This document shows, piece after piece, positions 7,003-28,119 of a DNA stretch of 64,000 nucleotides. Source of the stretch: an uncultured Erysipelotrichaceae bacterium. GTDB taxonomy: Bacteria > Bacillota_I > Bacilli_A > RF39 > UBA660. The stretch is from contig CADBDE010000003.1 of assembly GCA_902793375.1 (NCBI GenBank), positions 30,039-94,038 of the forward strand, in the 5' to 3' direction. The position numbers and the translations under genes are program-made. The notes under the pieces are model-generated. The model worked only from the letters and a program-made list of their open reading frames with translations, was not told the origin of the DNA and did not search any database. Numbering within the stretch: the stretch's first letter is position 1; every line of letters begins with the position of its first letter.

Positions 7003-7404
7003 ATGAATAATTATAATTATTTTGATCCATTAAATATTCCAAATAATGAAAATGCAAACAGTCTTTATGGAGCATATGAAGGATATTTAAAAGGAAATAT
7101 GTTTAGTAATCTATATGAAGAATATAAGGGTTATAAACCTGATGTATTAAGACCTGATAATGAAAAAGAACAAGAGTTATTTAACTTAAATCAAATAGGA
7201 TTTGCTTTACATGACATTAATCTATATTTAGATGTAAATCCAAACGACAATCAAATGCTTAGAATATTTGATAAATATAAGAATTTATATAATGAATTAT
7301 TTACACAATATGAAAATAAATATGGAGCAATTTGTGTAAATAATGTTAATAATAAAATTCCATTTGAATGGGAAAATTCAAGTTTCCCATGGGAGGGTAA
7401 ATAA
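7003..7404 (+). CDS. cotJB: Spore coat protein CotJB family (133 aa; the N-terminal extension may be a fused CotJA-like segment)
   Basis: IGFALHDINLYLDVNPNDNQMLRIFDKYKNLYNELFTQYENKYG matches the CotJB signature. It is translationally coupled (ATG overlapping the stop) to cotJC. Confidence 0.65.
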   Translation: MNNYNYFDPLNIPNNENANSLYGAYEGYLKGNMFSNLYEEYKGYKPDVLRPDNEKEQELFNLNQIGFALHDINLYLDVNPNDNQMLRIFDKYKNLYNELFTQYENKYGAICVNNVNNKIPFEWENSSFPWEGK

Positions 7405-7970
7405 TGTTTCAGTATCAAAAAAAATTACAATATCCAATTAATATAAAAAAGAAAGATTTAAAAATGGCAAAATACTTAGTAACTCAATATGGAGGATCTA
7501 ATGGTGAGCTTGGTGCTGCTTTAAGATATTTAAATCAAAGATATTCAATGCCTGATAATAGAGGAAAGGCACTTCTTACTGATATAGGAACAGAAGAATT
7601 AGCTCATGTTGAAATGATATCAACAATGATTTATCAATTAACAAAAGATGCAACGATTGAAGAGCTTGAAAGTGTTGGATTAGGTCCACATTATGCAGAA
7701 CATAGTAAAGGTCTATATCCAACTGATTCAAATGGAGTTCCATTTACAGTTGCATATTTTGCAACTACTGGAGATCCAATTGCAGATTTATACGAAGATA
7801 TGGCAGCAGAACAAAAAGCAAGAGCAGTATATGAAAATCTAATAAATATGACTGATGATAAAGATGTCATAAATCCATTAATATGGTTAAGACAAAGAGA
7901 AATAGTACATTTTAACATGTTTAAAGATTTAGTTAGTATATATGAAAAAGAAAAGAAAGTTAACTATTAA
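7404..7970 (+). CDS. cotJC: Spore coat protein CotJC (manganese-catalase-like ferritin fold)
   Basis: YQKKLQYPINIK...QYGGSNGELGAALRYLNQRYSMPD...TDIGTEELAHVEMI...DPIADLYEDMAAEQKARAVYE closely parallels B. subtilis CotJC. Confidence 0.85.
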   Translation: MFQYQKKLQYPINIKKKDLKMAKYLVTQYGGSNGELGAALRYLNQRYSMPDNRGKALLTDIGTEELAHVEMISTMIYQLTKDATIEELESVGLGPHYAEHSKGLYPTDSNGVPFTVAYFATTGDPIADLYEDMAAEQKARAVYENLINMTDDKDVINPLIWLRQREIVHFNMFKDLVSIYEKEKKVNY

Positions 7971-7978
7971 CTTTCTTT

Positions 7979-10933
7979 TTATTCATAAAAATCATCAAAT
8001 TTATTATCTTCCTCTGCTCCATTTTCAAGATTTAAATCAAATTGAGGTTTATTTTCTTCTGTTTGAACTCCCATATATTTATTTGTTTCCTCTTCTTTAA
8101 CTTTTCCTTGATTCAAATCTGAAAAATTAACAAAGTTTCCTGATTTCATATCTTCATAATAATCTTTATTATTTGTTGGACTAGTTATATTTCCATTAGT
8201 TGTAATATTATTCTCTTCTTTATTTTTTTGAACATCATCCAATATATTTTTTTGAAAGAACGATGAGTTATTTGTCATATTTTGTTGGTTATTATTACTT
8301 TGATTATCTATAAAAGTCCAATTTTTATTTGAATTCATTCCCATATTTGAATTATTCTGAATTCCAAAGCCGGTAGGATTATTATTAATTCCAAATCCTG
8401 CTGGATTATTATTTATTCCAAATCCCGTTGGATTAAATTGTTGATTTTGATTATTACCTTCATTACTTAAGGCAGCTGCAGAATTAGTAATGGCAGAAAG
8501 ATTATTCAATTTTTCAAAAGTTGGAAATTCATTAACAATCTCTCCATTTTTAATGCTCATATTATCAATAATCATATCATTATCTATAATACCAGTTGAA
8601 TTATTATCATTATTTTGTTTATCTTGATCTACACTATACATTGGTGCTCCAAATAATGTTTCTGAATTTTCATCTTTAGAACTTTCTCCATACATTGGTG
8701 CTCCAAACAATGTTTCACCACCATTATTAGAAGAACTATTATTAAAGAATGATCCAGTAGGTTGATTATTAGTAGGTATTTCACTATTCATTGGTCCACT
8801 AAACGATTGATTATTCATTTGTTGGTTCATTGGTCCTTGCATTGGTCCTCCATACATTTGATCATTCATTGGTGGGTTCATTGGTCCTTGCATTGGTCCT
8901 CCATACATTTGGTCATTCATTGGTGGGTTCATTGGTCCTTGCATTGGTCCTCCAAACATCTGGTCATTCATTGGTGGGTTCATTGGACCTTGCATTGCTC
9001 CTCCAAACATCTGGTCATTCATTGGTGGGTTCATTGGTCCTTGCATTGCTCCTCCATACATTTGGTCATTCATTGGCATGTTAATTGGTCCTTGCATTGG
9101 TCCTCCGAACACTTGGTCATTCATTGGCATGTTCATTGGTCCTTGCATTGGTCCTCCATACATTTGATCATTCATTGGCATGTTCATTGGTCCTTGCATT
9201 GGTCCTCCGAACATTTGATCATTCATTGGCATGTTCATTGGTCCTTGCATTTGATTGTTCATATTATAATTTCCACCAGTATTTGAATTTGCAACAGAAC
9301 TTCCACTCATAAGCATATCAATTCTATTTCTATCTTCATTATTATTTGCATTATTTTCAGGATGAAAATAATTCTGATACTTATCAAAATTTTGATTGCT
9401 TATATCTTGTCTTTCTGGTTTAAAATCATTATTCCACATACGCTTTCCCTCATTCTTTTTGTTTTTTTGATTTCCTCTATATTTTTCAGGCACATATTCT
9501 ATATTTTGTTCTTCTATTTCAGCATTACTTCCAATTGGTCTTCCAAGTAAAAAGCCATCATCTACTCCAGGTCTTATTTCATCAGTAACGACATAATCTA
9601 TAACTTGTTTTTGTTTTGGAGCTTCGTTTTTTAATACTCCAACATTTGATGATAATATCATATCATCTAGTTTACTTGAATCAACTGTTTTATTAATTTT
9701 TTCTTTCAATCCGGTAGAAACAGCAGCTGATCCTACTTTTGCATATTTTGTTTTTCCAGTTGATGTAATTATATTATTGATTGGTTTACTATTTCTAAGT
9801 TCAACCTTATCAATCATATCTGGATCACTTTCGAATAAAGACATTTTGTTTTGGAATTCTTCTTCCTCTTTTCTTTTCTTCATCCGATTATTATATACTT
9901 CATTATTCTTTATTTTTAATTCTTCGTGGCTTTCTTCATCGCCATCATCTTCTTCATTGTTTTCTAACTCACTTCTTGTTAAAGTTCCATCTTTTCGCCA
10001 CTCTTCAATTGGTTTCTCGCCCTTTTCCTCAAGCATTATATCATTAAACATCTTATCAAAATTAGGTAGTTCTTTTTTTATAACATCTGGATAAATGTTT
10101 TTAGAATTTTCTATTGCTTTTCTAACATCAAATATATCCATATATGGTCTATTATCATATACTGTATATGAAAAAGCTTGTTTTAAAAGTGTTAAACATA
10201 CATCAGGATACCTTGATCCTAGTGAAAATATTCTTTTATATTCACTAGTTATGTCTACGATGAAACTCATAATTCTTTCTTGAATAAATGATGTATACTT
10301 CATCTTCCTTCCTGTTTGTTTTTCAAACTTTGGAAGAGTTCCCATCATTATTGCTATTGTTTCATCTCTTGAAGGTTCTGGAACTTCAATTTTCTGAAAT
10401 CTTCTTGTAAAAGCTTTATCTCTTAAAATATATCTTTCATATTCTTCTGTCGTAGTAGCACCAATTACTTTTATGCTTCCTCTACCCAACCCCTCTTTAA
10501 AAATATTGGCAAAGTCCAATGATGAAGTTTCTGTTGATCCAATCAACATATGAATTTCATCTATAAATAATATTATTTTTTCTTTAGTTTTTAATTCATC
10601 AATCATTTTTTGAACTTTGCTTTCTCCACTTGGCATTGTTCCAAGTAAAGAAGCTGTTTTAATATTTAAAATTGTATATCCCTGTAAGGCATCAGGTACA
10701 TTGTTTTGTTGAATTCTATATGCTAATCCTTCAACAATAGCAGTTTTACCTATACCTGGTTTTCCAATTAAAATTGCAGATTTTTCAGGGGTTAATAGGA
10801 CTAAAATTAATTCTTTTATTTGCTGATCTCGCCCAATGGCAGGATCAGTAACATATTCATCTTTAGTGACATCTGTACCATAACGTTCAAGTACACTAAA
10901 ATTGGCTTCGAATTCCATTGTTTCCTTATCCAT
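7979..10933 (-). CDS. AAA+ ATPase with a single ClpA/ClpB D1-like module, followed by a long low-complexity C-terminal region (tandem 17-aa PMNMPMNDQMYGG repeats, FG and N/Q-rich tail)
   Basis: N-terminus DPAIGRDQQIKELILVLLTPEKSAILIGKPGIGKTAIVEGLAYRI...ILFIDEIHMLIG...RRFQKIEVPEPS matches the Clp/Hsp100 D1 Walker A/B and sensor regions. No Clp N-domain and no D2. About nine repeats of GGPMQGPMNMPMNDQMY, then NPTGFGINNNPAGFGINNNPTGFGIQNN. Confidence 0.7.
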   Translation of the reverse strand: MDKETMEFEANFSVLERYGTDVTKDEYVTDPAIGRDQQIKELILVLLTPEKSAILIGKPGIGKTAIVEGLAYRIQQNNVPDALQGYTILNIKTASLLGTMPSGESKVQKMIDELKTKEKIILFIDEIHMLIGSTETSSLDFANIFKEGLGRGSIKVIGATTTEEYERYILRDKAFTRRFQKIEVPEPSRDETIAIMMGTLPKFEKQTGRKMKYTSFIQERIMSFIVDITSEYKRIFSLGSRYPDVCLTLLKQAFSYTVYDNRPYMDIFDVRKAIENSKNIYPDVIKKELPNFDKMFNDIMLEEKGEKPIEEWRKDGTLTRSELENNEEDDGDEESHEELKIKNNEVYNNRMKKRKEEEEFQNKMSLFESDPDMIDKVELRNSKPINNIITSTGKTKYAKVGSAAVSTGLKEKINKTVDSSKLDDMILSSNVGVLKNEAPKQKQVIDYVVTDEIRPGVDDGFLLGRPIGSNAEIEEQNIEYVPEKYRGNQKNKKNEGKRMWNNDFKPERQDISNQNFDKYQNYFHPENNANNNEDRNRIDMLMSGSSVANSNTGGNYNMNNQMQGPMNMPMNDQMFGGPMQGPMNMPMNDQMYGGPMQGPMNMPMNDQVFGGPMQGPINMPMNDQMYGGAMQGPMNPPMNDQMFGGAMQGPMNPPMNDQMFGGPMQGPMNPPMNDQMYGGPMQGPMNPPMNDQMYGGPMQGPMNQQMNNQSFSGPMNSEIPTNNQPTGSFFNNSSSNNGGETLFGAPMYGESSKDENSETLFGAPMYSVDQDKQNNDNNSTGIIDNDMIIDNMSIKNGEIVNEFPTFEKLNNLSAITNSAAALSNEGNNQNQQFNPTGFGINNNPAGFGINNNPTGFGIQNNSNMGMNSNKNWTFIDNQSNNNQQNMTNNSSFFQKNILDDVQKNKEENNITTNGNITSPTNNKDYYEDMKSGNFVNFSDLNQGKVKEEETNKYMGVQTEENKPQFDLNLENGAEEDNKFDDFYE
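8812..9250. repeat. In-frame tandem DNA repeat, 51-bp period, about 8-9 copies, encoding the PMNMPMNDQMYGG protein repeats of the AAA+ gene
   Basis: Unit ttgcattggtcctccatacatttggtcattcattggtgggttcattggtcc is repeated head-to-tail with few substitutions (visible 8841-9250). Confidence 0.85.
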
Positions 10934-11354
10934 TGAACAAGCCTCCTATCATAGAACATTATAACACACGATTATGTATTTAATAAAGATAAAATAAAGA
11001 AAAAAAGAAACTTTTTTGTAGAAGATATCATATATCTAAATCTTCATCTTTACGATGAGCTAAAAATTTTGATGGTACTAAGGATTCTTTAATTGATGAA
11101 TCGCATAAATCTCTCTCAAAACACCCTAACGCTCAAACTGAATAAGAATTAAAATGGATTAAAGACATCTCTAATATTACTCTCCCTGAATTATATTGAA
11201 AAGTTGAAAGAAGTCATAGAAATGATCAATAAAGATTATATTCTTATCTAAAGTTCTATTCCTATGATAATTTATTACTTCAAATGAAAGTTTATCTTAA
11301 ACGTTCAAATAACATCATACTTGGTTGAATTTCTACTATTCAAAAAAAATCTAT

Positions 11355-11395
11355 TAGAAAAGCAATGCTAATGCACTGCTTTTGGTATTAATATT
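11355..11395 (-). terminator. Rho-independent terminator (bidirectional hairpin) downstream of the 11536..13923 operon
   Basis: Stem aaagcaatgc / gcactgcttt with loop taat and T/A runs on both sides. Confidence 0.45.
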
Positions 11396-11535
11396 TTTTC
11401 ATTTTTTTAGTATCACATCATTTACAATTATACAAAATAAAGAAAAAAGAAGCATTTTTTTGAAAGTGTATTCTATCACAAAACCAGTTTTTTATTAATG
11501 TCTACTTAGATGGGTACATTTCAAATAGTTTTTTA

Positions 11536-11736
11536 TTATCGACGTCTTACATTATCTTGAGATTCATAAGTAAAATTTCTTAACACTTCTTGTTTTTCTA
11601 TTTCTAAAAGCATTTTTATTTCTTCACTTGTTAATCCTTTTGCTTTTAAAACATATACCATCTCATCAGGTGGTAATTGTTTAATTACCTCTCTTATAGA
11701 TAGTTCTTTATAATTATCAACCATAAAACCCTCCAT
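11536..11736 (-). CDS. Small conserved protein (66 aa), paralog of 14044..14244. Start taken at MEGFMVDNY; the 83-aa track ORF has a spurious N-terminal extension.
   Basis: MEGFMVDNYKELSIREVIKQLPPDEMVYVLKAKGLTSEEIKMLLEIEKQEVLRNFTYESQDNVRRR is about 85% identical to the product of 14044..14244. It is placed 3 nt downstream of the large surface-protein gene. Confidence 0.55.
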   Translation of the reverse strand: MEGFMVDNYKELSIREVIKQLPPDEMVYVLKAKGLTSEEIKMLLEIEKQEVLRNFTYESQDNVRRR

Positions 11737-11790
11737 AAATAAACTGTATATAATACTATATATAATAATATAGTAATAATCAAGCACTTA

Positions 11791-13923
11791 TTAATTATTT
11801 TTAACTATTTTATGACATCTACGATTAATTGCTAAAAGTGTTCCAAAACTGATAAACAGTATAAAGCAATACTTTTTAATTGAATCATCAGTTGCTGGGT
11901 TATCAAGTACTTCATCTATTTTCCAGTTAACAGCTATTGTTACATTTTCAAACGGCATAGTAAATTTATTAAGCATTATAGATATTGTTCCATCTTCATT
12001 TTTTATTAAATCGTTTTCTTCAAAAGCTATTTCTTCTCCACTAGATGTTCTTACAATTATCTCCTTCAATTTTACTCCATTTTTAGAAGTAAGTTTAAAA
12101 GTTATTTCTTCTCCTCCTTTTGCATTATCTACAACTTCTATTTCCCCATTTTCATCTATTTCAGTATCTACTTTATAACTCAATTCACTAATTGGTATTG
12201 TTATTACAGGACGAACTCCACAGCCTAATTTAGTTTTATAATCATTAAGTATACTACCACATACAGATCTACTAGTTGTATCAAATCCTGCTCCACATAT
12301 GCCACCAGAACTATCTACAAATACAACTGAATTAACTCCTATTCCATTATTTGATCTATCATATCCTGCTCTTATCCAGTATGTTGTATTATATATAAAA
12401 CTATGTTTTTTCGCTAATAAGTCATTTAAAAAACCAAACTCATAATGTGGGGGTTGAATTGTTGGAGTTGCGCTACTCCACTCTTGATAAGGCAATGTTT
12501 TATTATTTAGCTTAGTTATTTCATTTATTTCATCTAATGTCAATAAATCAACGTCTGTAACATCAACACCATAAAAGTTTAAAGTAGTTTTGTATGATTT
12601 CAATTTTGTTAATATAGATGTCTCTGAATTATTATTTCCTAAAGTCAAATCATAAAAATATCCATCATATTTATCACCACTTGCTTCATCAACATAAAAA
12701 TCTACAAATGTATTAATATGTCCATTATAATATTGACGAGATTCTATATATATATCTCCTACTTGTGGATATAAATAATTGCCATCTTCATCCCAATGAG
12801 CACTTTTTGCTTCTTCATTTTGAGTTATTAAATCTGTTGAGATTTCTTGAGCTATAAAACAATAATTTGGAATATTATAATATCCTTCTCTTCTTGATTC
12901 AGCACCCAACGAAGTAGCTAAGTCTTGACAATATTCTTCATCAGTTCTATTATCACTAGAGTCTTTTTCTATTTTAATTTTTGATATTGTAGTACCTGTA
13001 TATAGATTATATTTTGATATCATTCTTACTTTTTCACTATCTTTTGATAATAAATAAAAATGTTCTTCACCACAGGCAATTTCATCACCTATTTCTTTTC
13101 CACTACCACTAATAACTTGACATTGCCATTTATCATGCTTTCCAAAATTTACTTCAACATATAATGATCCCATTGGTCTACTAGTAGACAAAGAAACAAA
13201 CTCATTTTCCAATGAATGAATATCATATTTTTCATATAAAATGTTTCCTTGATAGTCTTTTACAACAATTGAATCAACATAATTAAATTTGTCTGGAACT
13301 GCATAAAAATATACACTTTCATTTAATACATTAGTTAGTTCACTAACAGTTGTTGTTCCATTACCATTTATAGTTACATTAGTATCAAATTTAACACGGG
13401 TATAAAAGTTTCTATCCATTGAATCAACTATACTACAAGAAGAATTTCGACAACAACTTACAGTGCTTTTATCAGTAAATCTAAATTCATTTTCATTTGT
13501 TTTAAAGTAAAAATAATTATCAATAGATCCTTTATTATTATCATAATAATAAGAATAAAGAATACCTCCAAAGTTTGAATTAAGTGGAACCCAATCATGC
13601 GCTGACATGTCTATAAAAAAATTACTAGTTTTATTTTCATATATTACTTTATTACCAGTTATTTTTATAACTTCATTTTGAAAAGTATATCCTTCTACAT
13701 TTACTAAATATAAAAGTCCAGCTAGTTTTTCTGGAGTATTAATTAAGTAGTCATAATTTCCATAAAATGAAGAAACATCCCCCTTAACATTATTATAAGT
13801 ACTTGGATCAAACCAACTTGTATCTCTATAAGATGGATCATCTAACCAAGTATCTGCTTTCACCATTGTTGGTATAAAGAATAATGTTAATAATGTGACA
13901 ATTAAAAAAATTGCTTTTTTCAT
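11791..13923 (-). CDS. Secreted cell-surface protein (710 aa) with signal peptide, variable central domains and a conserved C-terminal module ending in an NPATD motif, hydrophobic segment and basic tail (putative cell-wall sorting/anchor signal)
   Basis: N-terminus MKKAIFLIVTLLTLFFIPTMVKA. C-terminus ...NWKIDEVLDNPATDDSIKKYCFILFISFGTLLAINRRCHKIVKNN. Last 130 aa are about 70% identical to the 14286..15998 product. Internal region CQVISGSGKEIGDEIACGEEHFY is shared with the paralog. Confidence 0.6.
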   Translation of the reverse strand: MKKAIFLIVTLLTLFFIPTMVKADTWLDDPSYRDTSWFDPSTYNNVKGDVSSFYGNYDYLINTPEKLAGLLYLVNVEGYTFQNEVIKITGNKVIYENKTSNFFIDMSAHDWVPLNSNFGGILYSYYYDNNKGSIDNYFYFKTNENEFRFTDKSTVSCCRNSSCSIVDSMDRNFYTRVKFDTNVTINGNGTTTVSELTNVLNESVYFYAVPDKFNYVDSIVVKDYQGNILYEKYDIHSLENEFVSLSTSRPMGSLYVEVNFGKHDKWQCQVISGSGKEIGDEIACGEEHFYLLSKDSEKVRMISKYNLYTGTTISKIKIEKDSSDNRTDEEYCQDLATSLGAESRREGYYNIPNYCFIAQEISTDLITQNEEAKSAHWDEDGNYLYPQVGDIYIESRQYYNGHINTFVDFYVDEASGDKYDGYFYDLTLGNNNSETSILTKLKSYKTTLNFYGVDVTDVDLLTLDEINEITKLNNKTLPYQEWSSATPTIQPPHYEFGFLNDLLAKKHSFIYNTTYWIRAGYDRSNNGIGVNSVVFVDSSGGICGAGFDTTSRSVCGSILNDYKTKLGCGVRPVITIPISELSYKVDTEIDENGEIEVVDNAKGGEEITFKLTSKNGVKLKEIIVRTSSGEEIAFEENDLIKNEDGTISIMLNKFTMPFENVTIAVNWKIDEVLDNPATDDSIKKYCFILFISFGTLLAINRRCHKIVKNN

Positions 13924-14043
13924 ATTACACCCTCACTTTATTATAATTCTATTATATATTATAATTATTAAAAACAACGTAACGAAATTATATTTTTAAT
14001 GTAAATGAGTGTAAAGAAAAACGAACTAAAATAGTTCGTTTTG

Positions 14044-14244
14044 TTATCTACATTTTACATTATCTTGAGATTCATAAGCAAAATTTCTTAATGCTTCTTG
14101 TTTTTCTATTTCTAGAAGCATTTTTATTTCTTCACTTGTTAATCCTTTTGCTTTCAATGCATCAATCATCTCATCAAGTGGTAATTGTCTAATTACCTCT
14201 CTTATAGATAATTCTTTATAATTATCAACCATAAAACCCTCCAT
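14044..14244 (-). CDS. Small conserved protein (66 aa), paralog of 11536..11736
   Basis: MEGFMVDNYKELSIREVIRQLPLDEMIDALKAKGLTSEEIKMLLEIEKQEALRNFAYESQDNVKCR. Confidence 0.55.
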   Translation of the reverse strand: MEGFMVDNYKELSIREVIRQLPLDEMIDALKAKGLTSEEIKMLLEIEKQEALRNFAYESQDNVKCR

Positions 14245-14285
14245 AAATATAACTGCACATAATACTATAAATAATCAAGCACTTA

Positions 14286-15998
14286 TTAATTATTTTTTGC
14301 TTTTTTATGGCATTTACGATTAATTGCTAAAAGTGTTCCATAACTGATAAATAAAATAAAGCAGTACTTTGCAATTTCATCATCAGTTGCTGGGTTATCA
14401 AGTACTTCATCTATTTTCCAGTTAGCTGTTATTGTTACATTTTCAAAAGGCATAACAAATTTATTATTCATTATTGTTACTGTTCCATCTTCGTTTTCAA
14501 TTAAATCTCCTTCAGTAAACTCTATTGTCGTTCCATTCTCGGTTGTTATTGTGATAGTAGATAATTTATATCCTTTTTTAGGAGACACTTTAAAACTTAT
14601 TGTTTCATTTCCTGCTGAATTATCTACTACTTCTATTTCACCATTGTTATCTGTTTCTGCAGCGATATTATATAAGATTTCATTTTTTGATAATGTAATT
14701 AAAGGTCTTAGTCCTGCTCCAACATCAACTGAACAGTACCCAGCATTACATATATCTCCCCAACTATCTACAAAGAAAGCATTACTTCCAGAATCTCTCG
14801 TTCTAGTCCAATATGTTGTAGCCCATATCCATGAATAATCATCTGGTATATGATCTTTTAAACTACCAATAATATTAAAATTAGCTCCAAAATGGTTTCC
14901 TTGTTGCCAATTTGATGTCCAATCATCAAGTGGTAATCTATTATTCGTTGTATTATATGTGAAATTATCTAAATCTTTTACAGTAATTAGATTGATATCA
15001 CTTATTCCAACATTTAAAGATTCTAAATATCTTTTATAAAACAATAATGAATTTGTCATTTTTTGATCATAACTATAATCTAATATAACATCTCGATAAT
15101 TATTATCGTTATATGATGAATTACTATCAAATGATCCCTGTCCTAACGGATTAGCGGTAAATGATCCATATTCAGGTAATTCAGCTACTCCTCTTACTGC
15201 TCCATGAGCTCCAATTGCTAACTCACTTTGTTTAACCATTTTTGATTCATTCATTTTTTTATAATAATATCCATAATAATAAATAACGGAATACTTAGTA
15301 TCTTTAAATTCAGAATAATGGATACTATATCCTTCTGCTATTTTTTGTTGATATTCTTCTGAACTTTGTATTTCATTAATATTTAACGAATGGTTTGAAT
15401 CTTCTGCCATGTGTATTTCTGTTGTATAAGAGTCATTTTTATAAAGTATAATATAAGTTGCATCATAGTAATACTCACCGTTAATTACTTCTCTAGTACT
15501 ATATCCTAATGTAATACTAATAGTACTTTTAGGAATAAAGCCTTCATTTTGAATAGCATCAATTACTTCAGGTAAATATAGTATTTCTCTATATGTTCTT
15601 GGTGTCCCATCAAGTTGAATTTTTTTATATGTAATCTCCATTTCTTTATAAAATGTATAATCCGTCTCGTTTTTTTGAAAATCATAAGCCGCTTTTTGTT
15701 CTGAATATCCAAGATTTAATAATTCTTGGGCTTTTTCATTATTACTATACCCAGGATAGCGTCCAGGAATAACGACATGATCAAATTGATTACCATCAAA
15801 TATATTATATTTTGCTAATAATCTTAGATTAGAATCATCTTTGTCAAATACGTAAAAGTGTTCCCCTCCACAATCAATTTCACTACCTAAATCATTTCCG
15901 TTTCCTGACACTACTCTACAGTGGCCTTCAGCATCTACAACTTTTGGTATAAAGAATAATGTTAATAATGTGACAATTAAAAAAAATACTTTTTTCAT
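14286..15998 (-). CDS. Secreted cell-surface protein (570 aa), paralog of 11791..13923, with the same C-terminal NPATD/hydrophobic/basic anchor
   Basis: N-terminus MKKVFFLIVTLLTLFFIPKVVDA. C-terminus ...NWKIDEVLDNPATDDEIAKYCFILFISYGTLLAINRKCHKKAKNN. DNA around the stop/start junction (14270-14340) duplicates 11788-11850. Confidence 0.6.
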   Translation of the reverse strand: MKKVFFLIVTLLTLFFIPKVVDAEGHCRVVSGNGNDLGSEIDCGGEHFYVFDKDDSNLRLLAKYNIFDGNQFDHVVIPGRYPGYSNNEKAQELLNLGYSEQKAAYDFQKNETDYTFYKEMEITYKKIQLDGTPRTYREILYLPEVIDAIQNEGFIPKSTISITLGYSTREVINGEYYYDATYIILYKNDSYTTEIHMAEDSNHSLNINEIQSSEEYQQKIAEGYSIHYSEFKDTKYSVIYYYGYYYKKMNESKMVKQSELAIGAHGAVRGVAELPEYGSFTANPLGQGSFDSNSSYNDNNYRDVILDYSYDQKMTNSLLFYKRYLESLNVGISDINLITVKDLDNFTYNTTNNRLPLDDWTSNWQQGNHFGANFNIIGSLKDHIPDDYSWIWATTYWTRTRDSGSNAFFVDSWGDICNAGYCSVDVGAGLRPLITLSKNEILYNIAAETDNNGEIEVVDNSAGNETISFKVSPKKGYKLSTITITTENGTTIEFTEGDLIENEDGTVTIMNNKFVMPFENVTITANWKIDEVLDNPATDDEIAKYCFILFISYGTLLAINRKCHKKAKNN

Positions 15999-16244
15999 AT
16001 CATACTCCTTAGATTTTATACTTTTATTATAAATGATAAATTTGAAAAACCATTAAATTAAAATAAATTTAAAATGTAAACCTGTAAAGTAAAAAAAGAG
16101 CTATAAGCTCTTTTTAATACAATATGGTGCGATACAAGAGCCTATTTTGAACACTTATATCCAAAAGAATAACTAATAAATATCAGTTCTATATATAATA
16201 GACCATATTTTTGAGTAATATCAACGATTTTTAGGACGTTTTTT

Positions 16245-16292
16245 TTGATTTTTTCGAAAAAATGTAGTATAGTATTAACCGTTTCGAAAAGG
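16245..16292 (+). promoter_or_regulatory. Sigma-A-type promoter for orf 16303..17700 with perfect 10-bp palindrome TTTTCGAAAA in the spacer and a second TTTCGAAAA copy in the leader (candidate operator)
   Basis: -35 TTGATT (16245-16250), 17-bp spacer, -10 TATAGT (16268-16273). Palindrome ttttcgaaaa at 16251-16260 and tttcgaaaa at 16282-16290. RBS aaaagggg before the ATG at 16303. Confidence 0.35.
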
Positions 16293-16302
16293 GGAAATAC
16301 TT

Positions 16303-17700
16303 ATGAAAATACAAATAAAAGATATAGAACTTATTTTTTCCAAAAATCAACAACAATTTATAGATGAGATTAAAACGATAATTCTAAACAACTATGAATT
16401 AATACTTGGTTGTTTAGGCGAAAACAAAACAATTGATATTTCTCAAGATGAATCTAATTTTAATGACACATTTTATTATATCGTTAAAGGAACGTATAAT
16501 GATGCTAATATTAGACGGTTACTTTATGATAAATTTTTTTTATTAAAACTTTATATTGAAGTTTTAATTAGAAGAAAAAATTATTCTAATATTTCAATAG
16601 ATCATAATCCGAATATAACTGATGAATTGTTATCTTCATTGATAGCATATAAATATTTTGAAACAAATGGATCTTTTGATGATTTTGTAGAATACCTAAA
16701 AGTTAGAAATACGGAAGAAACAATATTTGAATGGTTAAAAATTAATCAAAGATGGGAGACATATAATTACTTACTAAACATAGCATTAAATGGTTTAAAA
16801 GAAGAGGACGATGATTTTTTAACGCATGTAACTTATATAATAAGTTATTTTTCAAAAAAGGCCTTAGAATGCAACAAAAAGGAAAAAGCACCAAAAGTAG
16901 ATTATCCCAATATTTCTGATATAGAATTTGACCGTTTATTTTATGAATTTTTAAATTTTATTAATGCTCCAGATAGTTGGATAGATATTTATAATAGTCT
17001 TAAAGAGCAAAAATTATTAATTAGGGAACATGGGGTAACCGAATGTTTTCAAGATGAAGATGGAATATATAAGATTAAATTAGAAAATAGTAATGATTTA
17101 TTTGTTTTTTGTAATTTTGTTCATGAATTTATTCATTACATTTCAATGAAAGATGATTTTCTAAAAGCAGAAAAATTAATTGAAGAATTTCCTAGTATAT
17201 TTTTTGAAAAAATAGCTGCCGAATTTTTAACAATTAAAGGTTATCCAAATGTAATTATTGATATAATTGATGATGATAGAGATAGCAACAATTATTATAT
17301 AGTTACTTTTCCTTTATTTTTAAGAATATATGCCGATTTAATATATTATTTTAAAAATGGTAAAATAGAAAAAGAAAATATGATGGCTACATTGCAATCC
17401 TTTTTTGATGATGAAAGTAAACCATCTCGAACTGATTTAGAAAAACGTGCAGATGACTATTGCGATTTTCTAATAGATTTTTTTATTGAAGAAGGACTAC
17501 TATTTGGTTATCAATATTTATTTGATACTTATTTAGCAGAACAAGTATTAAATAAAAGAGAGCAAGATAATACAATAATTAAAAAAATGATTAATGTAAC
17601 TAATAATTTAGGAATGACAAGTGTTAAAGACATTCTAACTTTATTTGGTATTGAAAACACACTACAAGAAGAAGCAGCTAAAAAGTTAATAAAAAAATAA
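16303..17700 (+). CDS. Hypothetical protein with HExxH zinc-metallopeptidase-like motif
   Basis: 465 aa; the only recognizable motif is FVHEFIHYISM (HExxH) near residue 275. No signal peptide or TM helix. Confidence 0.45.
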   Translation: MKIQIKDIELIFSKNQQQFIDEIKTIILNNYELILGCLGENKTIDISQDESNFNDTFYYIVKGTYNDANIRRLLYDKFFLLKLYIEVLIRRKNYSNISIDHNPNITDELLSSLIAYKYFETNGSFDDFVEYLKVRNTEETIFEWLKINQRWETYNYLLNIALNGLKEEDDDFLTHVTYIISYFSKKALECNKKEKAPKVDYPNISDIEFDRLFYEFLNFINAPDSWIDIYNSLKEQKLLIREHGVTECFQDEDGIYKIKLENSNDLFVFCNFVHEFIHYISMKDDFLKAEKLIEEFPSIFFEKIAAEFLTIKGYPNVIIDIIDDDRDSNNYYIVTFPLFLRIYADLIYYFKNGKIEKENMMATLQSFFDDESKPSRTDLEKRADDYCDFLIDFFIEEGLLFGYQYLFDTYLAEQVLNKREQDNTIIKKMINVTNNLGMTSVKDILTLFGIENTLQEEAAKKLIKK

Positions 17701-17714
17701 AGGTAAAATTGAGT

Positions 17715-18905
17715 TTATCTCTCAAAGTCATCTTTTCCTTTGCTTAAATCCAACTCTTCAATATTATCATCATCTAAAACATTATCATCATACATGTCAT
17801 TAATAACATCAATATATTTATCATCTTTATCATACCAACTATGAAGTTTATCGTGTAAGAAGGATATTAATTTACTAAATTTATCCTTCCAATAATCTAT
17901 TGTATCTTTTAAATCTTGTATTTTAGATTTTAAAAATGATATTTCATTATTCTTTTCTTTAATTGTATCATTTAAAGTCTTAACTCTTAAATTAAGTACT
18001 TCATTGTTTTCAGTAAGAGTTTTAATCTTATTATTTTTATCTTTTAATTGTTCGTGAGCATTTACTAGTGTATTAGATAGAGTTTGTATTTTATCATATT
18101 CTTTATTAGTGTTATCTACTTGATTGATAAAGTCGATAAAAGTTTTTTTATCTTCTTTTGATAAAATATAATTATCTTTATTAAATCTAGATACTTTTAA
18201 TTTATCAATTTTATCTTTTATATCTTTGGAATTTTGTTTTAACTCCGAAGATTTTTTATTTGCTTGTTTTAGATTTTCGGTATTCTTTTCAATTTGCTTT
18301 TTCATTTCAATATAGTTATCCATATCAGATACATGAATATCTCTATTTCTACCTTTTTGTTTTTGTTTTAAAGTAGAGTCTAAACTATATACTTGATTAA
18401 ATTCTTCAATACATAAAGTTCTCATTTTATCTTGCAATCTTATTAAAGATTCTTTAGTAAATACATCAGATTTACCAACTTGTTTTTCCATACCATTTTT
18501 ATTTTTATATTTAATTGGAACTCCAACAATATGTAAATGTGGACTTGTTTCATCATAATGAATAATTGCACTAGCTACTTTAAAATTTGGAACAAGCATT
18601 TCTAAATCATCAACTTGTTTTTTATATACTTCTGACATTTTCTTTTTAAAGTTTTCATCTTTAGTATCCCAATATTCTTTATCTCCAAGTTCAAGTATTA
18701 TTTCACAAGCAAGATCTTTTTTCTCGTTATTAGATACATTTTCAAAATAATTATCTATCATACGACTAGGTCTAGATTGTTTAGAATTATATTCTAATCT
18801 TGCTTCTTCAAATTCACTTAAATAAAGTTCTTTTACATCATCAAGTGGAGAAGAAGTACCTCTTATTATTTCAATTAGTTCTTGATTATTAACATATTTT
18901 CTTTT
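17715..18905 (-). pseudogene. mob: MobV/Pre-family plasmid mobilization relaxase, 5-prime truncated. Annotated ORF is 17715..18761; the reading frame stays open upstream to a TGA at 18906-18908 with no start codon.
   Basis: HYDETSPHLHIVGVP matches the Mob_Pre HxDE...PHxH metal-binding motif. KDLACEIILELGDKEYW aligns to the KDAVL...TSDKDFF segment of pMV158 MobM. The N-terminal roughly 45 aa, including the catalytic region, are absent. In-frame upstream codons ...YVNNQELIEIIRGTSSPLDDVKELYLSEFEEARLEYNSKQSRPSR precede the annotated Met and stop at the repeat boundary. Confidence 0.65.
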
Positions 18906-18909
18906 TCAT

Positions 18910-18991
18910 ACAACAAAAAATCAATTCCATTTCTAGAATTGATATTTATTAGTAAATTGAACCTAAGTTCAACCAGATTCTTTAATGGTGC
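18910..18991. repeat. 82-bp direct repeat, copy 1, abutting the truncated mob gene
   Basis: acaacaaaaaatcaattccatttctagaattgatatttattagtaaattgaacctaagttcaaccagattctttaatggtgc is identical to 19769..19850 except one T/A difference. Confidence 0.85.
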
Positions 18992-19100
18992 GAGTGTCGT
19001 AGATATCTACAACTTTTCACAAGTACGGATGATATAAATATCACTCATTAAATACATTCTACCAAATAATAGAAAAGGTAGCAATATGTTTCATGCTACT

Positions 19101-19679
19101 TTATCTTTTTTTTGGAGAATCACTTTTTTGTTCTTTATGTGATTCTTCATAAAACCAATTTTTATCATAAGAATTATAACTATTTATATCTATCATTACA
19201 TTTTCACCAATGATTGGATTTAAAGACCATCCTTCTCCAAATGTGTGTTTACATCCATCTTTAAAATTTGACGAAAATTCTTGTTGTAATAATCTATATA
19301 ATTTTCTCAAATCTTCATTGCTTACCATTTTAATAGTATCACTTGTTATTCTTGTACCTTGTTCACATCTACCATAGTCTATTAAATTACCATTTCGTAA
19401 CATATATAAAACATATAATTCATTAGTATTTTCCACACATTGTTTAATATAGTTAATAAATTTTGTACATGCTTCATTAAATATATCTAAGTCACTACTA
19501 AATATGCTATTAGTTTCATCAGCTACATCAGGAAACATAGATTTAATCATATCAGCTGCTTTCTTATAATTTTCAAAACATTCATTTAGAAAAGGAACAA
19601 CAGGATCATTTTTATCTATACCTTTTTCATCGATTTCTTGTACTTTTTTAAATGTATCTTCCTTATTCATAGTCATCAC
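19101..19679 (-). CDS. Hypothetical protein (192 aa) inside the repeat-flanked cassette
   Basis: ORF with good codon usage and several Cys (CFENY, CTKF, CVENT, GRCEQG, CKHTF). No recognizable motif. Confidence 0.45.
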   Translation of the reverse strand: MMTMNKEDTFKKVQEIDEKGIDKNDPVVPFLNECFENYKKAADMIKSMFPDVADETNSIFSSDLDIFNEACTKFINYIKQCVENTNELYVLYMLRNGNLIDYGRCEQGTRITSDTIKMVSNEDLRKLYRLLQQEFSSNFKDGCKHTFGEGWSLNPIIGENVMIDINSYNSYDKNWFYEESHKEQKSDSPKKR

Positions 19680-19768
19680 TCATCCTTTAGATGTATTCAT
19701 TATAACACAGTTTTAAGATATTTTAACATTTTTTACATTTCTATTTCAAAATCATCCCTTTCTTTTAC

Positions 19769-19850
19769 ACAACAAAAAATCAATTCCATTTCTAGAATTG
19801 ATATTTATTAGTAAATTGAACCAAAGTTCAACCAGATTCTTTAATGGTGC
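19769..19850. repeat. 82-bp direct repeat, copy 2. Its last 6 nt are the 3-prime end (GCACCA) of tRNA-Leu.
   Basis: 81/82 identical to 18910..18991. The copies are 859 bp apart. Confidence 0.85.
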
Positions 19851-19930
19851 CTGAGGTGGGACTTGAACCCACACGGTGTCGCCACCATCGGATTTTGAGT
19901 CCGACACGTCTACCATTCCATCACTCAGGC
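19845..19930 (-). tRNA. tRNA-Leu (anticodon CAA) with long variable arm and encoded CCA
   Basis: Reverse complement gcctgag...tcggaCTCAAAAtccga...long variable arm tggtggcgacaccgtgt...GGTTCAAGTCCC...ctcaggc-a-cca. Anticodon loop is CTCAAAA. Confidence 0.85.
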
Positions 19931-25638: not shown

Positions 25639-25989
25639 TCAATCTTTTGGATTAAATATAAGTAAAAAAATGAATGAAAAGAAAATAACGGATACAATAC
25701 CTGCAGCTGTTAAGTCAAATGCACCTAGGAATAATCCAAAGAAGCCAACATCACTAGCACGTGCTAAAGCTCCATGTATCAAAGAATGTCCAAAAGAAGT
25801 AATTGGAACGTATGCACCGGGTCCAACATTATCTATAAACCAATCATAAATGCTAAATATATCTAAGAAAGCTCCAATTATTACAAAAAGACTAGTAATA
25901 TGTCCTGGAGTTAATTTAGTATTATCAAGAATTATTTGTCCAATTAAACAAACAATTCCTACAAATAAAAATGAATATAAATATGTCAT
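25639..25989 (-). CDS. spoVAEB: Stage V sporulation protein AEB (SpoVAEB)
   Basis: 116-aa polytopic membrane protein. Paralogous to the spoVAC product (shared GxxHSLIHGALA-type segment). Third gene after spoVAC-spoVAD. Confidence 0.65.
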   Translation of the reverse strand: MTYLYSFLFVGIVCLIGQIILDNTKLTPGHITSLFVIIGAFLDIFSIYDWFIDNVGPGAYVPITSFGHSLIHGALARASDVGFFGLFLGAFDLTAAGIVSVIFFSFIFLLIFNPKD

Positions 25990-26981
25990 ATTACACTCTC
26001 CAAACTAATAGCATGACTTATAGATAATATTGGATGTTTTTGATAAATAAAAGTTGGTGAAAATAATGCTCCTGTTGCTACAACTAATACTTTCTTAAGT
26101 ATTCCTTTTTCAATTAATGGAAAAATATAAGAATAATTAACAAGTGGAGAACAAGCAGGTCCACTTCCTCCTGCATGTACATTTTTCTGTTTATTTAAAT
26201 CATAAATCATAGTACCACTATCATTATAATTATTTAATAAATCTATTCCATATTCATCTTTTAAATAGTCTCTTAATATTCCCATTCCATATATTCCTAA
26301 ATCTCCGGTAATGATTAAATCATAATAATTTATATCTCTTTTTGTATCTTTTAAATGAGCTACTATTGTTTCTCCTGCTGCTACTGCCATATTAGCACCC
26401 ATATTATTTGCATCATTTTGACCCATATCACAAATTTTTCCAATTGTTCCACTCTCAACTTTTATTTTTGTTTTATGATTACAAAGCAAAATACTTGCTC
26501 CACCTGTTGTAGTAAACGTTGAACTAAGTGGCCTTGGTGCACCATATTCAATTGGATTTCTATATTGTTTTTCACTTGATAAATTATGAGAGGAAACGCT
26601 TACAATAGCATTCTTAATATAATCTTTTTCAATTAAAGAAGAAGCAATTATTACTCCTTCAGTAAATGTTGAACAAGCACTATATATTCCAAGATGTGGT
26701 ATATTGAACTTTTTAATTCCATAACTTGTAGCAGTTATTTGATTTAGTAAATCTCCTCCAATAATTAAAGATATTTCTTTACTACTTTTTCTCGCCTTTC
26801 TTAACAAAATATCCACTGATTCTTCTAATAATCTCACTTCAGCATCTTCAAAACTTTTCTCACCAATATATAAGTTATCATAACTTTTATCAAATTTATG
26901 TCCAAGTGGTCCCTTTTTCTCATATGGTCCTGTTACACAAGAAGTATTTTCTACATAAACATTATCAAATTTAAACGTCAT
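25986..26981 (-). CDS. spoVAD: Stage V sporulation protein AD (thiolase-fold SpoVAD)
   Basis: MTFKFDNVYVENTSCVTGPYEKKGPLG...YDLIITGDLG...GGSGPACS; 331 aa, matches SpoVAD length and thiolase-like fold motifs. Confidence 0.8.
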   Translation of the reverse strand: MTFKFDNVYVENTSCVTGPYEKKGPLGHKFDKSYDNLYIGEKSFEDAEVRLLEESVDILLRKARKSSKEISLIIGGDLLNQITATSYGIKKFNIPHLGIYSACSTFTEGVIIASSLIEKDYIKNAIVSVSSHNLSSEKQYRNPIEYGAPRPLSSTFTTTGGASILLCNHKTKIKVESGTIGKICDMGQNDANNMGANMAVAAGETIVAHLKDTKRDINYYDLIITGDLGIYGMGILRDYLKDEYGIDLLNNYNDSGTMIYDLNKQKNVHAGGSGPACSPLVNYSYIFPLIEKGILKKVLVVATGALFSPTFIYQKHPILSISHAISLESVI

Positions 26982-26982
26982 A

Positions 26983-27420
26983 TCAAAAACCTCCTATATA
27001 TCGTATACTTCCAAATAAAACTGCAGACACAATTCCATACACAATTACTGATCCAGCAAGTTTCAACATGTTACAACCAATTCCATAAATTGGACCTTCT
27101 CTTTTATAATCAAGTCCAGCACTCATTACTGAATGAGCAAATCCTGTTATTGGAATTATAAGACCACATTTTGCAAAATTAACCCATTTGTCAAAAAAAC
27201 CTAAAGCAGTAAAAAGACAAGCTAATATAATAAAAGTTAAAAGCATAAATGTGGCTGCATCTTTAGAAGAAATATCAAAAGTAAATTGATAAAAATCAGA
27301 TAAAAGATGAGCAAATACTCCCATAAATCCACCAACTAAGAAAGAAATAACAGAATTTGCAATTCTATTTTCTTTTGGTTTATTACTATCAACTATTCTC
27401 TTATAGTCTTTCTTTTCCAT
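26983..27420 (-). CDS. spoVAC: Stage V sporulation protein AC (SpoVAC)
   Basis: 145-aa membrane protein with GFAHSVMSAGLDYKREGPIYGIG. First gene of the spoVAC-AD-AEB tricistron. Confidence 0.7.
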   Translation of the reverse strand: MEKKDYKRIVDSNKPKENRIANSVISFLVGGFMGVFAHLLSDFYQFTFDISSKDAATFMLLTFIILACLFTALGFFDKWVNFAKCGLIIPITGFAHSVMSAGLDYKREGPIYGIGCNMLKLAGSVIVYGIVSAVLFGSIRYIGGF

Positions 27421-27462
27421 ATAATCACCACTAGTATTTTTAACAATAAAAAAAATAATATA

Positions 27463-28119
27463 CTAACATGTAATATTATCTTTTATTTTTTTTAATATTT
27501 TGCTCTCTTTTCTAGATACTTGTACTTGGGATATACCTAACTCCCTAGACGTTTCTATTTGACTTTTATCTTTAAAATATCTAATTTCAATTAGTTTTCT
27601 TTCATCATCTGGAAGTTGTTCTATTTCTTCTTTTAATGCAAGAATATCTTCATCATATCCCTTTTCGATATATGCTTCATAATCATAAAGATTAACATCA
27701 TTTTCATCTGATAAATCACAATCCATACTTTTTACTGTTAAGGATAAATTAATAGCATTAACAATATCACTTACAGAAACTTCTAAATAGCTAGCTAATT
27801 CTTCTATACTAGGTTCTTTAGAATTAACCTGTGTTAAATATTCTTTTACTCTTGATATAGATCGTATTAATTTATCATTATCATAGTTTCTTTTAATTGT
27901 TCTATTTTCTCTAATATATTTTAGTATTTCTCCCTTAATATAAAAATGAGCATAAGTAGAAAACTTAGCAATACTATCTTCTTTATAGTTTTCAAAAGCT
28001 TTTTGAAGTCCAATATTTCCTACTTGATATAAATCTTCTAAATCTTCTTCATTATAACAATATTTTTTAGCTATTCCATATATTAAGTTTTTAAACAGCT
28101 CTACTGTTTCATTATCCAT
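27463..28119 (-). CDS. sigF: Sporulation sigma factor, SigF-like (sigma-70 group 3)
   Basis: Region 4 LGISQVQVSRKESKILKKIK is nearly identical to B. subtilis SigF LGISQVQVSRLEKKILKQIK. Region 2 LYQVGNIGLQKAFENYK...FSTYAHFYIKGEILKYIR. Located directly upstream of spoVA genes, as in spoIIA-spoVA loci. Confidence 0.7.
   Translation of the reverse strand: MDNETVELFKNLIYGIAKKYCYNEEDLEDLYQVGNIGLQKAFENYKEDSIAKFSTYAHFYIKGEILKYIRENRTIKRNYDNDKLIRSISRVKEYLTQVNSKEPSIEELASYLEVSVSDIVNAINLSLTVKSMDCDLSDENDVNLYDYEAYIEKGYDEDILALKEEIEQLPDDERKLIEIRYFKDKSQIETSRELGISQVQVSRKESKILKKIKDNITC

Follow-up and report, generated by a model that had tools for sequence, protein, structure and literature searches.

A two-cassette array of paralogous predicted surface proteins and a conserved small protein in a tRNA-Leu(CAA)-flanking spot of an uncultured gut Bacilli genome

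We analyzed a 64,000-nucleotide (nt) stretch of DNA from an uncultured Erysipelotrichaceae bacterium (GenBank assembly GCA_902793375.1, contig CADBDE010000003.1, positions 30,039 to 94,038 of the forward strand), hereafter referred to as the window, with a focus on positions 11536–15998, where two genes encoding large proteins with signal peptides (L1 and L2) alternate with two genes encoding a small protein (s1 and s2). The locus is probably a two-cassette array of paralogous secreted surface proteins, situated in a variable tRNA-flanking spot of spore-forming, low-GC gut Bacilli. Family-wide conservation of a C-terminal NPxT motif in L and the occurrence of L and s apart from each other in other genomes are among the evidence for this reading.

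Organization of the locus

In the list of open reading frames (ORFs), the four genes were found on the minus strand in the order L1 (15998..14286, 570 amino acid residues (aa)), s1 (14244..14044), L2 (13923..11791, 710 aa), and s2 (11736..11536), in agreement with an earlier reading of the unannotated sequence (the original prediction) that had described two consecutive modules, each consisting of a surface protein and a small protein. The window contains two copies of s and two copies of L and no more, and a search for a third s remnant upstream of L1 found none. The s1 and s2 proteins are identical at 57 of 66 residues (86%, E 2e-41), where about 85% had been claimed. The DNA duplication predicted near the junction was also recovered, as matches of 86% between positions 11775–12031 and 14270–14526 and of 92% between positions 11531–11741 and 14039–14249. 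Together with a third repeat (13853–14031 versus 15928–16106, 74%), the repeated parts include the 3′ ends of the L genes and the regions upstream of the L genes.

The small protein had been taken to be 66 aa long, but its gene most likely starts at the second ATG, Met5 (MVDNYK..., 62 aa; 14232 and 11724), because GGAGGG is located 4 nt upstream of this ATG, within the stretch read as 'MEGF', and public gene calls start at the same ATG. An 83-aa form of s2 starting with GTG was dismissed as an artefact of ORF listing. L1 and L2 do share a C-terminal module as predicted, but its proposed length of about 130 aa was an underestimate: the similarity spans about 360 C-terminal residues at 41% identity. 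Their signal peptides are alike at 18 of 24 residues, and both C-termini read ...NWKIDEVLDNPATDD, after which come a hydrophobic segment and a tail of basic residues. In L1, a Cys-containing segment near the N-terminus (residues 26–105) aligns with residues 267–348 of L2, and L2 thus bears an extra N-terminal region of about 240 aa, close to the roughly 250 aa originally given for it. The features of the array are as follows.

14286..15998, minus strand: L1, predicted secreted surface protein of 570 aa
15930–15998, minus strand: predicted L1 signal peptide (aa 1–23)
L1 aa 70–250, minus strand: clade-specific middle of L1
14679–15011, minus strand: C-type-lectin-like region of L1 (about aa 330–440)
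14409–14678, minus strand: InlB-B-repeat-like domain of L1 (about aa 441–530)
14289–14396, minus strand: predicted L1 sorting signal (aa 535–570), with NPATD at 14382–14396
14044..14232, minus strand: s1, 62-aa acidic helical protein (MVDNYK...KCR), with putative ribosome-binding site GGAGGG at 14237–14242
11791..13923, minus strand: L2, 710-aa paralogue of L1, with predicted signal peptide at 13855–13923
13129–13851, minus strand: extra N-terminal domain of L2 (aa 25–265), also found in a few family members
L2 middle region, minus strand: mainstream for the family
11794–11901, minus strand: predicted L2 sorting signal (aa 675–710)
11536..11724, minus strand: s2, 62-aa paralogue of s1 ending in RRR, not KCR, with GGAGGG at 11729–11734

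Family and predicted sorting signal of the large proteins

A word-indexed search recovered about 100 clusters of L homologues, all from metagenome-assembled genomes (MAGs) of uncultured Bacilli, 'Tenericutes' or Clostridia from gut and rumen. [quoted passage not shown] The signal peptides of L1 and L2, read directly from the sequence, are MKKVFFLIVTLLTLFFIPKVVDA/EG and MKKAIFLIVTLLTLFFIPTMVKA/DT, respectively. The InlB B-repeat model PF18998 (Flg_new_2) gave 23.1 bits with L1, just below the cut-off of 23.6, and did not detect L2. The top match, the immunoglobulin A (IgA) peptidase of Thomasclavelia ramosa, bears a C-type-lectin-like domain related to that of Lcl (PMC12237041); the C-terminal domain of Legionella Lcl (PDB 8Q4E) and, in the T. 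ramosa IgA peptidase, the N-terminal one (PDB 9QA6) are the named structural comparators for this part of L. A Foldseek search of L1 against the PDB returned nothing significant. Unlike internalins, L1 and L2 have no leucine-rich-repeat or internalin domains. L1 and L2 are probably cell-surface, sugar-binding, adhesin-like proteins.

The C-terminal NPATD had been proposed to be part of a non-canonical sorting signal, and comparison across the family strengthened this proposal. In an alignment of 100 family members, the N, P, and T of NPxT are conserved at 90% or more, and the adjoining columns are not. In 78 of the 100 tails, NP.[TS] was present ahead of a hydrophobic stretch and Lys/Arg residues, and the remainder were mostly variants, such as VPITG or NSETS. 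The commonest form is NPKTG. The tripartite signal of L1 and L2 consists of DNPATDD, YCFILFIS(Y/F)GTLLAI, and NR(K/R)CHK..KNN, with the motif flanked by acidic residues in the form D-NPATD-DE/S. In a related locus, L032, a family member with NPKTG is encoded 3 kb from a class B sortase gene, whose product matched TIGR03064 with 193.6 bits (cut-off 153.75) and the Pfam Sortase family with an E-value of 4e-15. Relatives of L gave weak, sub-threshold matches to NF033846 ('NPXTG-anchored protein'), and one of them, P0037, passed TIGR01167 (LPXTG_anchor). Because NPxT is conserved, a sortase B gene lies nearby in L032, anchor models match weakly, and the signal resembles that used by Bacillus anthracis SrtB, the reading of the L C-terminus as a sortase-type sorting signal, a variant of the class B (NPXTG/NPQTN) type, is supported at the family level.

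Compared with known class B substrates (B. anthracis IsdC, with DNPKTGDE, and the proteins described by NF033846), L1 and L2 are alike in the signal peptide, the N-P-x-T with flanking Asp, the short hydrophobic segment, and the basic tail; other family members carry NPKTG or NPETG, one of them beside a sortase B gene. They are unlike these substrates in having Asp after Thr, no match to an anchor hidden Markov model, and no adjoining sortase gene. They are also unrelated to NEAT/haem-uptake proteins. The L032 locus is itself compact: in this sheep-rumen Bacilli MAG, the sortase B gene overlaps by 8 nt the end of the gene for a 451-aa NPETG protein (L032 12797–14909), and the L-family gene (NPKTG) is located 3 kb upstream, forming a sortase B/substrate neighborhood.

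Several observations on L1 and L2 themselves weigh against sortase-mediated anchoring. The residue after Thr is Asp in both proteins, and Asp or Ile, not Gly, in the window clade as a whole (NPATD/NPQTI). Neither protein matched the NCBIfam anchor models TIGR01167, NF033846, and TIGR03063 at E ≤ 0.1. Motif and SrtB homology scans found no sortase in the 64-kb window or in the examined clade contigs, and among the window and all loci examined they were positive in L032 only. The AlphaFold2 (AF2) model presents residues 538–569 as a single long helix, and anchoring, ligand binding, and transcript structure were all inferred. These features, other than the last, would also suit proteins in which NPATD/NPQTI is a relic in this clade and which stay in the membrane by means of their C-terminal helix (type I membrane proteins), with no processing by a sortase. 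We consider this unlikely, since L1, L2, and orthologues with 60–67% identity have all retained the N, P, and T although the surrounding residues differ, and Gly follows Thr in only about half of the NPxT tails of the family. The hydrophobic stretch of L1 and L2 is only about 15 residues long, a length typical of sorting signals. The flanking Asp residues match those that B. anthracis SrtB requires in D-NPKTG-DE for activity (PMC11987632). Class B signals also vary naturally after Thr; the same source describes their targets as 'variations of NPXTG or NPQTN'.

Properties of the small protein

Close homologues of s were found in only 8 clusters among 5.8 billion proteins. Five further, more distantly related small proteins (42–77 aa), which have the first approximately 50 residues in common, came from an exhaustive profile search. 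The species-genome collection, which does not include this species, contained no s, and the JGI metagenomes yielded one distant match, which was unlinked to L. The ratio of nonsynonymous to synonymous divergence (dN/dS) of s was 0.14–0.3 in all comparisons, both between the paralogues and with orthologues, indicating that s is a real gene under purifying selection. The protein is predicted to be cytoplasmic, because it is acidic and has no signal peptide; it had also been called cytoplasmic-looking in the original prediction. The AF2 model consists of three short helices and one long helix with a predicted local distance difference test score (pLDDT) of 80.7, and the conserved residues are core hydrophobics and a KGLT helix cap.

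Profile and fold searches assigned no family and no known fold to s, and thus neither of the folds previously suggested for it, namely helix-turn-helix (HTH) and anti-sigma-like folds. Foldseek with the s model against the PDB returned nothing below E = 1, and comparison with Pfam, NCBIfam, PHROGs, and PADLOC gave a sub-threshold match to Pex14_N plus noise (SpxO, MerR_1) and nothing more. An HTH DNA-binding role was further weakened by the acidic nature of the would-be recognition helix and the net negative charge, and s is unlikely to be a DNA binder. The Pex14_N (PF04695) match reached 21.9 bits against a gathering score of 23.2 and covered profile positions 18–45 only. The corresponding 28-residue helix-turn-helix segment, LKxKGLTxEEI, matched Pex14_N in all s homologues (E ~1e-4), and a sequence profile search of the PDB returned designed repeat proteins and Pex14 only (Pex14 E 0.007). 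We rejected homology to Pex14: the match is below the gathering score, the family is eukaryotic and peroxisomal, and the likeness to the N-terminal three-helix domain of Pex14 is confined to this segment, which makes up less than half of s. The motif also fits designed helical repeat proteins and would thus be a generic helix-capping pattern with no homology behind it.

Other candidates were rejected as well. A SinI-type antirepressor and an Sda-type kinase inhibitor obtained hhalign probabilities of 0.9% and 1.2%, respectively, in comparisons with Bacillus subtilis SinI and Sda. The YESQD of s1 and s2 was weighed as a possible type VII secretion tail (YxxxD), since WXG100 genes are located near the array in locus L005, but the Tyr is not kept in L005, L006, or L009. 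Our best guess, held with low confidence, is that s is a protein–protein interaction or regulatory module.

Relationship between the large and small proteins

The strict pairing of L and s had been interpreted as a functional couple, and its conservation in relatives was a point to be checked. The pairing is broken in relatives. In other lineages, L genes form tandem arrays of three or four genes with gaps of 20–85 nt and no small gene, and the s profile found no match in the 19 L loci from species genomes. No s was found in L012–L014 either. In L009, the gene after s encodes an LtaS-like sulfatase and L is absent, and L005 has the order s-L-sulfatase with no s after L. Locus L006 has s ahead of the first L, and the order L-s-L-s is seen in L010 and L011. 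The distant s homologues are flanked by HAD and NUDIX genes or adjoin Rce1-like and NifU genes. Because there are L arrays that lack s, and s is also found where L is absent, a functional couple of L and s is not supported, and the L family has no dedicated partner in s. Their adjacency is best explained by a shared position beside tRNA-Leu and by cassette duplication.

It is quite unlikely, on these grounds, that s serves as a dedicated cytoplasmic partner of the adjacent L, either regulating its expression or acting as a chaperone or targeting factor on the signal peptide or basic tail of the precursor. Such a role would fit the alternation of L and s in this species and its nearest relatives, the lack of a terminator between them, and the purifying selection on both s copies, with s being far more conserved than L. 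However, the approximately 100 L-family clusters stand against only 8 close and 5 distant s clusters, in addition to the loci described above in which one gene occurs without the other. A functional link of local extent is conceivable and tells against our reading, given that both s copies are intact and conserved beside L in this species and its nearest relatives.

In L005 (2185–7481) and L009 (996–2945), a gene for an LtaS-like, sulfatase-domain membrane protein was found after the s/L array. In L005, WXG100-type genes follow the sulfatase gene and hint at a cluster for type VII secretion.

History of the duplication

Synonymous divergence (dS) between L1 and L2 varies along the genes: it is 0.8–1.2 in the middle, 0.55–0.72 in codons 425–504 (CTLD/B-repeat), 0.13 in codons 505–544, and 0.19 in the signal peptide, and that between s1 and s2 is 0.23. 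The middle and the extra domain of L2 resemble other family members, and the middle of L1 is clade-specific. In L011, an s2-type copy stands after the orthologue of L1, and the s of L005 is almost the same as s2; the number and order of cassettes differ among close relatives. From the dS gradient, the mosaic domain content, and the reshuffled cassettes of L011, L1 and L2 are likeliest to be old mosaic paralogues whose ends were homogenised or exchanged by recombination, which fits better than a recent clean duplication. The dS of the tail codons 545–570, 0.57, runs counter to this, and for such short segments the estimates rest on few sites and are rough.

Had one L-s unit simply been duplicated in tandem in the recent past, with the exposed middle of L then diversifying fast under selection and no recombination between old paralogues, the two units would abut and have similar ends, as observed; the dN/dS of 0.75 in the B-repeat, against about 0.27 in the tail or s, would also agree with this. 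However, such selection would have to coexist with synonymous divergence that is also several-fold higher in the middle than at the ends (0.13–0.23). The closeness of the L2 middle and extra N-terminal domain to other family members, the clade-specific nature of the L1 middle, and the reshuffling seen in L011 also make this history very unlikely.

The tRNA-Leu(CAA) spot and the adjoining mobile element

Two features upstream of L1 place the array in a wider context.

19845..19930, minus strand: tRNA-Leu(CAA), probable ancestral left neighbor of the s/L array
16131..19844, strand not assigned: putative decayed integrative mobilisable element between the tRNA gene and L1, outside the module

The tRNA-Leu(CAA) gene stands directly before s or the array in L005, L006, and L010, and before a distant s homologue in L016. 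In L040, it is separated from s by an element with a serine recombinase and a Mob_Pre relaxase. In the window, a 3.7-kb insertion follows the 3′ end of tRNA-Leu(CAA): GCACCA is present at 19845–19850 and again at 16125–16130, where it is followed by the same sequence and hairpin as those after the tRNA in L010. A long repeat of the tRNA 3′ end as an island border was not found at up to 3 mismatches in 25 nt; the only such repeat was the 6-nt GCACCA. Because the tRNA precedes s or the array in relatives and the sequence that follows it in L010 recurs after the insertion in the window, s appears to be a resident of the tRNA-Leu flank, where L genes and mobile elements accumulated.

The element carries a 192-aa ORF, a MobV/Mob_Pre relaxase gene (17715–18761), and a 465-aa ORF with no family match (16303–17700, plus strand). 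The relaxase lacks about 100 N-terminal residues and is 60% identical to that of L040, where a related, intact element (serine recombinase and Mob_Pre) occupies the same tRNA gene. An att-like junction inside the element suggests that two elements accreted in tandem. The presence of a MobV-type relaxase gene 1.7 kb upstream of L1, at a locus beside a tRNA gene, could be taken to mean that the L/s cassettes are cargo of a mobile element. This is highly improbable: in relatives, s/L comes straight after tRNA-Leu and there is no relaxase, and the right junction (GCACCA followed by the tRNA-terminator sequence) is located upstream of L1, which leaves L1 outside the insertion. The relaxase is, moreover, truncated at its N-terminus, and no near-identical DNA was found in plasmid and phage collections, nor any s or L relative in viral contigs.

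Transcription signals and a proposed mechanism

Promoters and terminators were called at the level of consensus, and the following candidates were obtained.

16093..16115, minus strand: hairpin and U-run upstream of L1
16088–16083 (TTTACA) and 16031–16026 (TATAAT), minus strand: L1 promoter-like region
14018..14042, minus strand: terminator-like hairpin and U-run right after the stop codon of s1 (folding energy −10.4 kcal/mol, z −4.9)
13940..14015, minus strand: L2 promoter-like region, with TTTACA-17-TATAAT at 14015–13987 (consensus match only)

A U-run hairpin and promoter-like hexamers thus stand ahead of each L gene. Upstream of L2, there is a second TATAAT (13956–13951), and the aligned hexamer is invariant in all seven of the aligned relatives. 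The hairpin after s1 is homologous to the one upstream of L1, with compensatory changes (GAGC/GCTC versus GAAC/GTTC), and this hairpin after s is kept in L005, L006, and L010. The hairpin upstream of L1 is probably the terminator of the tRNA, because the same sequence directly follows tRNA-Leu(CAA) in L010. No terminator was found between L and s, and read-through is therefore likely. As a point against this transcript structure, a −10-like element, TGATATAAT, is located immediately upstream of s in L009–L011, and s may also be transcribed alone. The 116 nt after the s2 stop codon contain no stable hairpin, and no riboswitch or other known RNA family was found upstream of L.

In L005 (1–292) and L006 (738–1023), the ribosome-binding site of s starts within approximately 10 nt of the 3′ end of tRNA-Leu(CAA), leaving no room for a promoter, so that s would need to be co-transcribed with the tRNA there. 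In the window, approximately 600 nt (10934–11535) separate s2 from the next gene, which encodes an AAA+ protein; this stretch has no ORF that reaches 40 aa and no match in Rfam, and a stable terminator is likewise absent after s2.

Under the two-cassette reading that we favor, each L would be exported via its N-terminal signal peptide, and a class B sortase encoded elsewhere in the genome would most likely cleave it after Thr and link it to peptidoglycan, where it would act as a carbohydrate-binding adhesin. Each L would be transcribed from its own promoter-like region together with the following s copy, and the s1 transcript would be closed by the terminator-like hairpin. The s gene would be a small core gene, located directly downstream of tRNA-Leu(CAA) in several lineages, and L genes and mobile elements would have gathered in this variable spot. 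Recombination or gene conversion between cassettes would homogenise their ends, i.e., the signal peptide with the upstream region, and the last approximately 65 codons of L with s. A more far-reaching version, which we regard as a long shot, is that the cassette ends and s serve as recombination handles for the swap, gain, and loss of adhesins beside tRNA-Leu(CAA), and that s is a new cytoplasmic factor for NPxT-Asp substrates of class B sortases, for example binding their basic tails or tuning their expression.

The L proteins would represent a family of probable lectin-like adhesins, anchored by sortase B, of uncultured gut and rumen Bacilli; the family is well modelled but lacks annotation, and Pfam and NCBIfam offer no model for most of the protein length. 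The NPxT-Asp motif would be a natural variant of the class B signal of possible interest for sortase B engineering, and s is a clean example of a conserved, selected micro-protein. In other respects, this is an ordinary variable surface-protein locus that leaves current understanding unchallenged.

Genome context and neighboring genes

The window has a G+C content of about 25% and is chromosomal, and identical loci are present in several gut metagenome assemblies. It contains a SpoVAC-SpoVAD-SpoVAEB operon with an adjacent sigma-70-family factor, and genes for CotJB and CotJC (Mn catalase family) (25639–28119 and 7003–7970), which suggests that the host is an endospore former. The best named relatives of the window SpoVAD are from 'Bacilli bacterium' MAGs, with 72% identity. 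The gene at 7979–10933 encodes a ClpA/ClpB-like AAA+ protein with the first ATPase module only and a very long low-complexity tail rich in Q, N, M, P, and G. Within the tail, a 51-nt repeat (GPMQGPMNMPMNDQM...) is present 9 times, with repeats at 8789–9251 and 8347–8435, and the protein is 899, 950, or 984 aa long in different metagenome copies of this locus.

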